From IMG/VR virus record IMGVR_UViG_2534681759_000007: 20,997 nucleotides of DNA; one strand, 5' to 3'. Within the stretch, counting starts at the first letter, position 1, and the number at the start of each line of letters is the position of its first letter. Shown here in pieces: positions 4,919-11,068 of the stretch. Made by a program: the position numbers and the translations under genes. Under the pieces are notes generated by a model that was not told the origin of the DNA, did not search any database, and was given only the letters and a program-made list of their open reading frames with translations. This stretch comes from a virus. Taxonomy: Duplodnaviria; Heunggongvirae; Uroviricota; Caudoviricetes.

Positions 4919-6865
<1,947 letters not shown>

Positions 6866-7095: not shown

Positions 7096-7264
7096 AACTA
7101 AGCCGCCTCGTTGAAGCGACTAAGGTATGAAATGTTGAGTTGATTTCAGCTGGTCACACCGACGTTCACGCGTCCGTTTCATCCCTCGCACTCCCCGAAG
7201 CCTGCTGAAATTCAAGCTGCGGATCTAAGCGGTCATCGCAACGGTGAATCAGGTAGTTGCCGTA

Positions 7265-7360
7265 TCGTTGTGTTGTTGCGATGAACTTATTTAAAACTAT
7301 AGTTGTTTTATCGTCAACAACAAAAGTTGTTTTATTGGTTGTTTTAGATATAACTGGTTG
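7265..7360. promoter_or_regulatory. Putative OL/pL operator-promoter region (GTTGTT/AACAAC dyads)
   Basis: Clustered dyad-symmetric sites, e.g. AACAACAAAAGTTGTT (7316-7331) and TTGTTTTATCGTCAACAA (7303-7320), sharing half-sites with the cI-cro intergenic region. Position between the rex-slot gene and the leftward early operon matches lambda OL. Confidence 0.5.
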
Positions 7361-7488
7361 TATTTAGGATGGATTTATTTTGTGACTTGCATCGCACAGC
7401 GATAACTGAAGCGAGGTCGTGGTGGTTTTTTGAACGGTTTGTGTGATGAGGGGAGGCAAAAGAAAACCCGGCACGACGGCCGGGGAAA

Positions 7489-8418: not shown

Positions 8419-9108
8419 TTATCCATGTTTCCTGTACGTCTGGGGCATGCTCCCAATAACCTTACCGAAGATGAACACCCGGTTCATCTCGTCTTTCTCG
8501 ATCGGGTCCCACGGTGAGTAGCTCTTGTTATCAGAGATAACCAGCAGCTTATCCTTCATCATTTGCAGGCGCTTTACATGGGCTGTGTCGTCGTACAGAA
8601 ACGCATAGATACCATCACCGTCGAAAGATTTAACCGTGATATCAACGAACAGCAGATCACCTGGTTCGATCGTTCCTGACATGCTGTCACCACGCACGTT
8701 AATGATGCGGATATTTTCCGCCTTCCTACCATCGAACATGTGACGAGCATCGTCAAACGAGTACTCAACCGAGCGTAGAACTTCTACAAACTCACGGTTG
8801 ATGACTCCCGGCCCAGCACTGACTTCTATATCAAGAACGTCAATCTTGAAGTATTTGGAATGGCTGACAGTTGATTGTATTGGTTGCACTGTACTGTCTG
8901 ACATATTTCCAACGCCAGAAGATAACCATTCTGCGCGCACACCCAAAGCGTTCGCGATCTCCACGATTTTAGTTGTTTGATTAGCTTTCCCTGTTTCGAT
9001 TTTCTGAATAGCAGCCTGGCTAACCCCGACCAAATCCCCAAGCGCCTTTTGTGTAAGGCCTCGCGCTAATCTGGCTTCTTTAAGTCTTTCTGAGAGTGTT
9101 GTTTTCAT
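8419..9108 (-). CDS. cI: CI-like prophage repressor (N-terminal HTH plus C-terminal S24 LexA-like peptidase domain)
   Basis: Start taken at MKTTLSERLKEARLARGLTQKALGDLVGVSQAAIQKIE (ATG 9108), an XRE-type HTH. C-terminal GDSMSGTIEPGD and HVKRL supply the Ser/Lys dyad of autocleaving repressors. Divergent from cro across an operator-containing spacer. Confidence 0.85.
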   Translation of the reverse strand: MKTTLSERLKEARLARGLTQKALGDLVGVSQAAIQKIETGKANQTTKIVEIANALGVRAEWLSSGVGNMSDSTVQPIQSTVSHSKYFKIDVLDIEVSAGPGVINREFVEVLRSVEYSFDDARHMFDGRKAENIRIINVRGDSMSGTIEPGDLLFVDITVKSFDGDGIYAFLYDDTAHVKRLQMMKDKLLVISDNKSYSPWDPIEKDEMNRVFIFGKVIGSMPQTYRKHG

Positions 9109-9114
9109 AGTCCA

Positions 9115-9180
9115 AATGTACAACCAAGGTTTTATTCCATCAAACGAAAATGGTTGTTGACTAAAAACAACCATAGTTTT
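9115..9180. promoter_or_regulatory. Putative OR operator / pRM-pR region
   Basis: Perfect inverted repeat TGGTTGTT-N7-AACAACCA at 9151-9173 plus additional GGTTGT half-sites in the 104-bp cI-cro spacer. Confidence 0.55.
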
Positions 9181-9212
9181 AATCTTGATTCAAATTAACC
9201 ACGGAGGTTGTT

Positions 9213-9443
9213 ATGAACCCAGCTATCAAAACAGCGATCAATATCGTTGGTTCACAAAAGAAACTGGGCGCTGCTTGCGAAGTTTCACAGCAGGCCGTCT
9301 ATAAGTGGCTTCACAACAAAGCAAAGGTATCCCCTGAACATGTCGGCAGCATTGTTACGGCTACTGGTGGAGTAGTGAAGGCATACCAGATTCGCCCGGA
9401 TCTTCCGAAGTTGTTTCCACACACCGAAAAGAACGCAGCTTAA
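9213..9443 (+). CDS. cro: Cro-like repressor (YdaS-type HTH)
   Basis: 76-aa ORF with GGAGG Shine-Dalgarno sequence, divergent from cI; motif KKLGAACEVSQQAVYKWL is a Cro/YdaS-type HTH. Confidence 0.8.
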   Translation: MNPAIKTAINIVGSQKKLGAACEVSQQAVYKWLHNKAKVSPEHVGSIVTATGGVVKAYQIRPDLPKLFPHTEKNAA

Positions 9444-9512
9444 ATTTCCATTTCACGCTCTTTAACAATAAGCAATCAACTTAACAGTCAATTCAAACTA
9501 AAGGAGTCAATT

Positions 9513-10138: not shown

Positions 10139-11068
10139 ATGGCAAACACTGCTGAGATATTCAATTTTCCAGTGCCGGATGTGGCACAAAAGGAGCCGCG
10201 CGTGGCAGATCTCGATGATGGTTATACGCGCATTGCAAATGAGTTGCTGGAAGCTGTGATGCTGGCCGGATTAACACAGCACCAGCTTCTGGTCTTCCTG
10301 GCTGTCATGCGCAAAACATATGGCTTTAATAAAAAACTGGATTGGGTGAGCAACGAGCAACTTTCCGAATTGACCGGGATATTGCCGCACAAGTGTTCTG
10401 CTGCAAAAAGCGTTCTGGTAAAGCGTGGGATTCTTATTCAGAGCGGGCGGAATACCGGCATTAATAATGTGGTCAGTGAATGGTCAACATTACCCGAATC
10501 AGGTAAGAAAAATAAAGTTTACCTGAAAGAGGTAAATTTACCTGAATCAGGTAAAAAAAGTTTACCCAAATCAGGTAAAGACGTTTACCCGAATCAGGTA
10601 AACACAAAAGACAAACTAACAAAAGACAATATAAAACCTTATTCGTCCGAGAATTCTGGCGAATCCTCTGACCAGCCAGAAAACGACCTTCCTGTGGTGA
10701 AACCGGATGCTGCGATTCAGAGCGGCAGCAAGTGGGGGACAGCAGAAGACCTGACCGCCGCAGAGTGGATGTTTGACATGGTGAAGACCATCGCGCCATC
10801 AGCCAGAAAACCGAATTTTGCAGGGTGGGCTAACGATATCCGCCTGATGCGTGAACGTGACGGACGTAACCACCGCGACATGTGCGTGCTGTTCCGCTGG
10901 GCATGCCAGGACAACTTCTGGTCCGGTAACGTGCTAAGTCCGGCCAAACTCCGCGACAAGTGGACCCAGCTCGAAATCAACCGTAACAAGCAACAGGCAG
11001 GCGTGACAGCCAGCAAACCAAAACTCGACCTGACAAACACAGACTGGATTTACGGGGTTGATCTATGA
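10139..11068 (+). CDS. O: Replication initiator O (lambda O family)
   Basis: Start chosen at MANTAEIFNFPV (ATG 10139, GGGAGG upstream), which aligns with the lambda O N-terminus MTNTAKILNF...VADLDDGY. An upstream in-frame ATG at 10049 overlaps the previous stop and is an alternative start. Contains iterons inside the coding sequence as in lambda O. Confidence 0.85.
   Translation: MANTAEIFNFPVPDVAQKEPRVADLDDGYTRIANELLEAVMLAGLTQHQLLVFLAVMRKTYGFNKKLDWVSNEQLSELTGILPHKCSAAKSVLVKRGILIQSGRNTGINNVVSEWSTLPESGKKNKVYLKEVNLPESGKKSLPKSGKDVYPNQVNTKDKLTKDNIKPYSSENSGESSDQPENDLPVVKPDAAIQSGSKWGTAEDLTAAEWMFDMVKTIAPSARKPNFAGWANDIRLMRERDGRNHRDMCVLFRWACQDNFWSGNVLSPAKLRDKWTQLEINRNKQQAGVTASKPKLDLTNTDWIYGVDL
10490..10602. 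repeat. Replication origin iterons (5 copies, one degenerate, about 23-bp spacing) inside the O gene
   Basis: Copies of TTTACC[C/T][G/A]AATCAGGTAAA at about 10490, 10518 (degenerate), 10538, 10560 and 10583, each internally palindromic (TACCTGA/TCAGGTA), followed by an A-rich stretch to about 10640. This is the lambda-type ori layout. Confidence 0.8.

Follow-up and report, generated by a model that had tools for sequence, protein, structure and literature searches.

A 104-bp spacer (positions 9109 to 9212) separates divergent cI-type repressor and cro genes in a 20,997-nucleotide stretch of caudoviricete DNA (IMG/VR record IMGVR_UViG_2534681759_000007), the whole of which was analyzed and is called the window below. 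The spacer contains a perfect palindrome, and a sequence-only reading had proposed that it is an operator in a region (OR) with several sites for the CI-like repressor. Here, we ask which unit of sequence the repressor would read at this locus. The spacer is very probably the OR of a lambdoid prophage, at which CI dimers would sit on three 14-mers of the form ACAAC-N4-GTTGT by means of a 434-like HTH domain, and the palindrome is most likely the junction of the back-to-back halves of two of them (OR2 and OR1), not an operator unit. The earlier proposal of a CI/Cro-type OR with several GGTTGT/ACAACC sites, shared with a second region (OL), is retained; the palindrome as the operator unit is not.

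In lambda, OR has three sites about 23 to 24 bp apart, the middle one near −42 of PRM, and the cI mRNA from PRM is leaderless; OL, with like sites, is about 2 kb off, accessory genes lie between it and cI, and the repressor is a self-cleaving S24 protein. The operator consensus of phage 434 is ACAATATATATTGT, i.e., ACAA-N6-TTGT, and in 434 co-crystals Gln28, Gln29, and Gln33 of the recognition helix read ACAA. The sites of the 434 repressor are 14 bp long; the protein contacts the outer 5 + 5 bp, and the inner 4 bp lack conservation (PMC1636474). In CP-933P of Escherichia coli O157:H7, YdaS and YdaT were shown experimentally to serve as Cro and CII, respectively, the repressor PaaR2 and YdaS footprint one divergent intergenic region with four repeats, not three, and the sites recur at the PL promoter (PMC8630535).

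Sequence analysis

Genome and viral collections were scanned with the repressor, which gave loci from many genera, including 30 enterobacterial-type loci (Klebsiella, Kosakonia, Providencia, Morganella, Photorhabdus, Xenorhabdus, Izhakiella, Enterobacter, Pectobacterium, Brenneria, Erwinia, Serratia, and Pantoea), all 30 with the recognition helix SQAAIQKIE. A PWM was built from the OR sites of the relatives only and was tested on about 21,000 window positions; the window was also scanned for ACAA-N6-TTGT (one mismatch or fewer). Half-sites were counted in OR (104 bp) and an OL block (92 bp) and evaluated with binomial P values. Inverted repeats were compared with dinucleotide shuffles of the 104-bp spacer. 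Conservation was read from an 18-sequence spacer alignment (A2), from an alignment with the heteroimmune phage PhiR68_2 (A1), and from 80 copies of the same allele.

Genes of the immunity region

The earlier placement of the spacer was correct, since it is bounded by the cI start codon, which ends at 9108 (minus strand), and by the cro ATG at 9213. Divergent genes for a repressor (HTH plus S24) and Cro around so short a spacer are what a lambdoid switch has. The recognition helix of the repressor (S30-Q-A-A-I-Q-K-I-E38) lies in an N-terminal 434-like HTH_3 domain, and its C-terminal S24 self-cleavage domain has Ala98-Gly99, Ser142, and Lys179 all present. The best PDB match of the N terminus was the DNA-binding domain of 434 repressor (1per/2or1; E value, 4.5e-9; phmmer), with query residues 5 to 68 on chain residues 2 to 65 and 24 of the 64 identical. 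The cro product, with the HTH helix S-Q-Q-A-V-Y-K, matched the Cro structure 3bd1 in the PDB (7e-4) and PHROG 35 (transcriptional repressor). A YdaT-family protein (PF06254, 2.8e-30) occupies the cII position after cro and is followed by the O and P replication proteins. To the left of cI are a DUF7946/DUF7947 accessory gene, OL/PL, a Kil-like gene, an IS21 element, and gam/bet/exo; no N homologue was recognized here, and the first PL gene is the Kil-like one. A longer cI open reading frame, annotated in phage PhiR34_1 from an ATG at 9172-9174 inside the palindrome, was rejected, with in-frame stops found in most relatives. Coordinates of the features are given in Table 1.

TABLE 1 Coordinates of genes and of putative promoters and operator sites of the immunity region in the window
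Feature	Position	Strand	Remarks
Immunity-specific OL block	7283-7376		From alignment A1 with PhiR68_2 and sequence listing
PL promoter	7288-7317	−	−35 TTGACG (7312-7317), −10 TTAAAT/TAAATA (7288-7294); putative
OL1, AAAACTATAGTTGT (ACAACTATAGTTTT in PL direction)	7293-7306		Between PL −35 and −10; PWM, 18.8 bits
OL2, ACAACAAAAGTTGT	7317-7330		Sole perfect ACAA-N6-TTGT in the window; 24 bp from OL1
Candidate OL3, ATATAACTGGTTGT	7348-7361		One good half-site; 31 bp from OL2; weaker
cI-type repressor gene (229 aa)	8419-9108	−	Pfam Peptidase_S24, 1.2e-18; HTH_3, 5.4e-13
PRM −10, TACATT	9115-9120	−	TAnnTT invariant in 18 divergent relatives; predicted function
OR3, ACAACCAAGGTTTT	9120-9133		−25 to −12 of PRM; PWM, 18.0 bits, third in the 21-kb window
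PRM −35, TTGATG	9138-9143	−	17 bp from −10, abuts OR2; putative
OR2, ACGAAAATGGTTGT	9144-9157		Weak left half, consensus right half; PWM, 12.8 bits
Palindrome noted earlier, ATGGTTGTT-N7-AACAACCAT	9150-9174		OR2 right half plus OR1 left half, enclosing PR −35
PR −35, TTGACT	9157-9162	+	Read in sequence; TTGAC/TTGAT conserved in relatives; 17 bp to −10
OR1, ACAACCATAGTTTT	9167-9180		−25 to −12 of PR; PWM, 19.2 bits, top of window
PR −10, TAATCT	9180-9185	+	TAnnnT invariant; putative; predicted +1 near 9192
Candidate fourth operator-like site, ACCACGGAGGTTGT	9198-9211		Over cro Shine-Dalgarno (GGAGG, 9203-9207)
cro analogue gene, YdaS family (76 aa)	9213-9443	+	Pfam YdaS_toxin (PF15943), 4.1e-17; P22_Cro, 8e-5

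Palindrome and half-sites

Positions 9146 to 9176 read AAAATGGTTGTTGACTAAAAACAACCATAG and contain the inverted repeat. As the sequence-only reading had stated, TGGTTGTT (9151-9158) and AACAACCA (9166-9173) are perfect reverse complements with a 7-nucleotide spacer; the perfect arms in fact reach 9 bp, one base more on each side. The half-site that had been cited as a further example at 9121-9126 was misplaced, since those bases are CAACCA and GGTTGT is found at 9120-9125 on the minus strand (ACAACC). Taken alone, the palindrome is only modestly unusual against the shuffled spacer, in which a perfect inverted repeat with a loop of at most 12 nucleotides arose in 5.5% (8-bp arms) or 1.6% (9-bp arms) of shuffles.

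Counted across the whole window, neither TGGTTGTT nor GGTTGT was in overall excess (GGTTGT, 12 copies versus 9.6 expected), and only the positional concentration of the half-site is informative. OR and OL together (196 bp) hold 6 of the 12 GGTTGT copies (P, about 6e-10), 9 of the 46 GTTGT copies, and 5 of the 7 TGGTTGT copies of the window (binomial P, 4e-10 to 1.5e-9 over the three motifs), so the half-site is concentrated in these two regions and coding sequence does not carry it at a similar density. The recurrence in OL that had been claimed earlier was likewise borne out, with GTTGT/ACAAC at 7302, 7317, 7326, 7338, and 7357.

Predicted operators and promoters

The spacer holds three partly symmetric sites about two helical turns apart across two divergent promoters, as is typical of lambdoid phages; the centers of OR3 and OR2 are 24 bp apart, and those of OR2 and OR1 are 23 bp apart. 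The four best PWM positions in the window were, in order, OR1, OL1, OR3, and OL2, and OL1 came second although the matrix contained no OL site. OR2 was seventh, and its score is no better than that of three sites elsewhere in the window, so it was assigned on position and conservation: its right half is invariant and its position is fixed at −49 in relatives. It has one mismatch to ACAA-N6-TTGT, is centered at −42.5 from the PRM +1, and shares one base, the first, with the PR −35. The scan for ACAA-N6-TTGT gave 15 matches in 21 kb, 7 of which lie in OR and OL (one an overlapping match at 7320), where the matches stand at 23- to 24-bp spacing. The candidate site at 9198-9211 also has one mismatch to this pattern but scores just 7.1 bits; a perfect left half, ACAAC, is present there in several relatives, and in PhiR68_2 the equivalent place is taken by the half-site type of that phage. 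A further candidate site, at 8963-8976, is intragenic.

OL lies about 1.85 kb to the left of OR. With flanks included, OL1 and OR1 are identical at 18 of 19 bases, and OL1 is conserved in relatives. At candidate OL3, which is inside the immunity-specific block, several relatives have an ACAACCA half-site at equal distance. PL is homologous to PR over about 35 bp and copies its cassette (GTTGTTGACG, then ACAACTATAGTTTT, then AAAT), and GTTGTTGAC...ACAACnnnnGTTTTAAAT is conserved in 16 relatives. An operator sequence that is repeated at a distant OL at PL, with paired sites beyond cI in 16 relatives, is again a lambdoid trait. The string GTTGTGTTGTT at 7267-7277 was considered as an operator and is probably not one; it falls beyond the immunity-specific block, and the heteroimmune phage has it too.

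A simple promoter scan (9-of-12 threshold) listed none of PR, PRM, and PL, and promoters were therefore assigned by conserved hexamers. In alignment A2, CAA (TTG) at 9141-9143 in the putative PRM −35 is invariant, as are T9180, A9181, and T9185 in the putative PR −10, where relatives show TATTAT or TAATAT. The PRM −10 is separated from the cI ATG by 6 nucleotides here and is always 6 to 7 nucleotides before it in relatives, and a Shine-Dalgarno sequence is absent. The PRM +1 appears to be the A of the cI ATG (9108), which would make the cI mRNA leaderless as in lambda, because the TAnnTT-ATG distance is conserved, there is no Shine-Dalgarno sequence, and the upstream extension of the reading frame is mostly closed.

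Conservation among relatives

A strong 14-mer stands at −25 from the cI ATG in 30 of 30 enterobacterial-type SQAAIQKIE loci. In most of these loci, further sites lie at −49 and −72 and two more, separated by 24 bp, lie beyond cI; 14-mer matches are otherwise nearly absent within 8.7 kb. The central 4 bp differ in nearly every locus (CAAG, TGTG, TTCA, CTCG, CATG, TGTA, CCTG, CTAG, and others). Inside the 14-mers the spacing is always four; between sites it differs, at 23 bp for OR and 24 bp for OL. Invariant in the 18-sequence alignment are T-ACAAC and GTTnT of OR3, GTTnT of OR2, and AnAAC and GTTnT of OR1, together with the start codon, the TTG and TAnnTT of PRM, and the TAnnnT of PR; central and inter-site columns are variable. 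A Rhizobiaceae MAG with an identical helix has perfect ACAACTAATGTTGT and ACAACTTTTGTTGT sites, with a lone perfect ACAACTAATGTTGT upstream at −67 and two more sites beyond the gene, so that the 14-mer occurs without an outward-facing partner. Dichelobacter loci with an identical helix have no clear ACAAC-N4-GTTGT upstream.

A comparison with operators of phages carrying the same allele, which had been suggested earlier as a check, was made with 80 copies, and the outer operator positions rarely vary (1 of 30, versus 17 of 74 other positions; Fisher P = 0.02). Among the variable positions are 9127, 9174, and 9175, all central, as well as positions in the inter-site spacers, and OR1 varies at the central positions 9174 and 9175 only.

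PhiR68_2 and a Raoultella prophage match the window in the C-terminal domain of cI and in flanking DNA but have a different helix, AQPTIWR, and their operators are ATAsC-N4-GsTAT 14-mers at corresponding offsets. In the heteroimmune OR, ATACGCTTGCGTAT, ACACGTTTTGCTAT, and ATACGCATTGCTAT lie 15, 40, and 65 from the start codon, compared with 14, 38, and 61 here. The OL block (about 94 bp) is replaced in PhiR68_2 by ATAGCTATTGCTAT-type (ATAGC/GCTAT) sites between near-identical flanks. The helix of the heteroimmune Cro shifts in parallel (AQPTVWR versus SQQAVYK here). The group of PhiR68_2, PhiR30_1, and 4A7 is like the phage of the window in genome backbone, cI C-terminal domain, operator geometry, and offsets and unlike it in the cI N-terminal domain, OR, cro, and OL block, which are exchanged as one cassette. 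As OR and OL are swapped with the cI and Cro helices, helix and half-site co-vary within a constant 14-bp geometry. The anatomy of the sites, their enrichment, their conservation, and their co-variation with immunity type are thus shown by the sequence analysis as a whole.

The 14-mer is favored as the operator unit because the 30 related loci keep the sites at fixed offsets and leave the central 4 bp free, because stand-alone 14-mers (OR3 and the Rhizobiaceae −67 site) lack an outward-facing partner, because the spacing within sites is constant whereas that between sites is 23 bp in OR and 24 bp in OL, and because the nearest solved structure is that of 434 repressor, whose DNA-binding domain recognizes 14-bp sites of the form ACAA-N6-TTGT. 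The palindrome would then exist because the TGGTTGT of OR2 and the ACAACCA of OR1 face apart across the PR −35.

Alternative readings

A switch with more parts, in which 9198-9211 serves as a fourth site (a four-site OR) and the back-to-back OR2/OR1 palindrome is itself selected, is unlikely, though it keeps a small share of our expectation. Across the 18 relatives, the outward-facing palindrome is 91% complementary, and in three related loci (Brenneria and Symbiopectobacterium) both arms are altered together, from GTTGT...ACAAC to GTTTT...AAAAC. Since these three loci are close relatives, the two-sided change is probably one evolutionary event, tied to a 1-nucleotide shift of the PR −35. The internal symmetry of OR1 at positions 2 and 13 is absent in every case. 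The arm co-variation and the OR1 asymmetry leave some room for the palindrome as a selected unit, and it might, for example, be what the YdaS-type Cro or a repressor tetramer binds preferentially. The joint arm change in three relatives is a hint of selection on the palindrome, and the possible four-site OR recalls the four repeats footprinted in CP-933P.

It is quite improbable that TGGTTGTT-N7-AACAACCA (23 to 25 bp) is one operator, with its outward-facing arms read by a dimer or tetramer of repressor or Cro and the other GGTTGT copies as extra half-sites. The repeat is perfect, with 9-bp arms, its complementarity holds in 91% of cells among the 18 relatives, the two arms co-change in the three loci above, and in the YdaS-type switch of CP-933P overlapping inverted and direct repeats were both regarded as possible units of binding (PMC8630535). 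This arrangement nevertheless leaves unexplained the invariant GTTnT at 9176-9180, the ACAAC...GTTTT at 9120-9133, and the stand-alone 14-mers, and the matching outward pair at OL has a spacer longer by one base. The arm centers are 14 bp apart, whereas a 434-type domain reads half-sites that are about 10 bp apart and oppositely oriented. Natural copies carry indels and substitutions in the loop; among the same-allele copies, L057 and L072 have −1 and +1 A there, and substitutions occur at 9159 and 9161. The three co-varying loci, being closely related, probably count as a single event.

That the palindrome acts as a nucleic-acid hairpin, either a weak bidirectional intrinsic terminator or attenuator (e.g., of leftward establishment transcripts that read through OR) or a cruciform, is very improbable. 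A terminator-like scan flags both strands with a T-rich tail, the RNA folds have energies of −10.8 and −9.0 kcal/mol (z-scores, −3.9 and −2.5), and G-U-tolerant pairing is retained in relatives. The element lies, however, upstream of the predicted starts of both PR (about 9192) and PRM (9108) and is thus absent from both main transcripts, only 3 of 9 pairs are G-C and the stem is not G+C rich as in a Rho-independent terminator, a terminator at this position would prevent cI from being transcribed during establishment, and the conserved columns track the protein half-sites and not the stem positions. A chance feature of an A/T-rich promoter spacer, with no regulatory meaning, is extremely improbable: about 5% of shuffled spacers do hold some perfect 8-bp inverted repeat and the window has 21 such repeats versus 5.5 expected, but the half-site is concentrated in OR and OL (P, about 1e-9), conserved across genera, and, in heteroimmune relatives, exchanged along with the repressor helix.

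Proposed switch

From the three-site OR and its counterpart at OL, we infer repressor binding, the order of occupancy, activation, and looping as follows. Repressor on OR1 and OR2 would shut off PR, and with it cro and the early-right operon, because OR1 covers −25 to −12 of PR and OR2 touches the PR −35. Repressor on OR2 would stimulate PRM from −42.5, the activating position of lambda CI, and OR3, over −25 to −12 of PRM, would silence cI when repressor is abundant or Cro is bound; the YdaS-type Cro presumably binds these same sites. Control of PL would fall to OL1, OL2, and the weaker OL3, with repressor on OL1 and OL2 repressing the promoter and looping between OL and OR possible. RecA-stimulated (SOS) self-cleavage at Ala98-Gly99 would inactivate the repressor and lift repression.

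The locus resembles lambda in its divergent cI and cro, three-site spacing, OR2 near −42, predicted leaderless cI mRNA, OL with like sites at about 2 kb and accessory genes between it and cI, and S24 repressor and differs from it in its 14-bp sites (17 bp in lambda), an unrelated half-site sequence, an HTH of 434/HTH_3 type, YdaS and YdaT at the Cro and cII positions, and a Kil-like first PL gene. With 434 it shares 14-bp sites, three per operator region, with conserved and symmetric outer bases and a free inner 4 bp, the outer four bases ACAA...TTGT, and a homologous N-terminal domain of the repressor; it differs in that positions 5 and 10 are invariably C and G here (ACAAC/GTTGT) and in that Cro is of the YdaS family and not, like 434 Cro, a paralogue of the repressor. 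In the recognition helix, Gln28 of 434 is kept (Q31), Gln29 is replaced by Ala32, Ser30 by Ala, and Gln33 by Lys36. On the sequence of the helix, this is not a 434-immunity allele, because the equivalents of both Gln29 and Gln33 are replaced; it has the 434 architecture with a different read-out, and its DNA contacts and immunity specificity probably differ from those of 434.

The order of YdaS at the Cro position and YdaT at the cII position is that of CP-933P. The repressor is an S24 CI, unlike the PaaR2/RacR-type repressor of CP-933P, and the 18-bp palindromes GTTTAGTAA there are unrelated to ACAAC-N4-GTTGT here, so the operators are not homologous. To find a PRE-like promoter, the window was scanned for TTGATT-N6-AATCAA, which is the YdaT site of CP-933P; the best nearby matches had 2 to 3 mismatches and were unconvincing.

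Significance and distribution

A literature search for the operator strings and the carrier phages found no description of these operators. The locus is most likely the ordinary genetic switch of a very common E. coli lambdoid prophage, and it leaves the lambda/434 paradigm conceptually unchanged; the allele is uncharacterized but very widespread. With a correct operator map, homo-immune prophages can be predicted and primers and targets chosen for EMSA, ChIP, and reporter work, and the mis-annotated long cI open reading frame is exposed. The pairs of helix and half-site (SQAAIQK with ACAAC and AQPTIWR with ATAsC) form a natural series for the change of specificity in 434-type domains. Of 5,426 complete E. 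coli genomes, 1,524 carry the cassette. It also occurred in at least 589 IMG/VR contigs, and a cassette of at least 99% identity is carried by six recently deposited E. coli phages (PhiR34_1, PhiR26_1, PhiR5_1, PhiR47_2, Turner, and IdasGreatGrand).

Besides the predicted operators OR1 to OR3 in the spacer between cI and cro, two operator-like 14-mers were found (table). The first, over the cro Shine-Dalgarno sequence, corresponds to a perfect ACAAC left half in several relatives, and the heteroimmune sister phage PhiR68_2 has a site of its own half-site type, ATACCAATAGGAAT, at the equivalent place. By analogy with the CP-933P switch of Escherichia coli O157:H7, with its four footprinted repeats (PMC8630535), this 14-mer could be a fourth operator. 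The second, at the +132 position of cI, has a better-matching counterpart, ACAACCAAAATTGT, in Pectobacterium relatives; the site in the window may simply reflect the codons that it overlaps, or it may be an intragenic site.

Additional features of the window
Feature	Position	Strand	Details
IS21-family istA (rve integrase) and istB (IstB_IS21, 7.7e-112)	4978-6779	(-)	Between Kil-like gene and gam
Inverted repeat	6782-6802		Accompanies istA/istB
CGCAGCTTrAATTTC, copy 1	7207-7221	(-)	3' of PL, in direction of transcription
Terminator-like G+C-rich hairpin	7467-7484	(-)	CCCGGCCGTCGTGCCGGG, then Ts; after DUF7946/DUF7947 gene
DUF7946/DUF7947 protein, 287 aa	7489-8352	(-)	Between cI and OL, rexAB position
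Operator-like site	8963-8976		ACGATTTTAGTTGT; 13 bits; within cI coding sequence, codons T-T-K-I-V
Operator-like 14-mer	9198-9211		ACCACGGAGGTTGT; over cro Shine-Dalgarno sequence
CGCAGCTTrAATTTC, copy 2	9434-9448	(+)	3' of cro, in direction of transcription
boxA-like sequence	9455-9467		CGCTCTTTAACAA; after cro-side 15-mer
Perfect inverted repeats	10499-10555		TCAGGTAA/TTACCTGA; within O gene
Two genes, 595 aa and 397 aa	12133-15123	(-)	Downstream of replication gene P

The cI gene deposited for PhiR34_1 (2008-2763), a phage with the same cassette, is a long 251-aa open reading frame whose start ATG lies inside the palindrome of the spacer (8419-9174 in the window). Because stop codons close its N-terminal extension in most relatives, the comparison of sequences makes a 229-aa cI starting at 9108 more likely than the 251-aa form. 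Two IMG/VR copies of the same allele, L057 and L072 (each a single natural copy), have one A fewer and one A more, respectively, within the run of As at 9163-9167 in the palindrome loop, which alters both the OR2-OR1 spacing and the spacing of the PR -35 and -10 elements; these differences may be genuine variants or homopolymer sequencing errors.

The rexAB position is occupied here by the DUF7946/DUF7947 gene, for which PADLOC gave only a weak match (PDC-S42, 1.5e-4); in related phages it is empty (PhiR34_1), holds a GevT/GevA pair (PhiR47_2, also with this cassette), or holds other genes. The hairpin that follows is kept in related phages irrespective of the gene between cI and OL and probably marks where the cI operon ends.

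Farther along the early-left operon, the istA/istB pair looks like an insertion, judging from gene order, since in related phages gam lies no more than a few hundred bases further on. The two 15-mer copies, together with the boxA-like sequence, are possible nut-like sites; counting against this, no N homologue was recognized, the first PL gene being Kil-like.

The inverted repeats within O may be origin iterons. The gene pair downstream of P matched the candidate defense system PDC-M62 A/B and, less strongly, Septu PtuA/PtuB (4e-44 and 1.5e-33).
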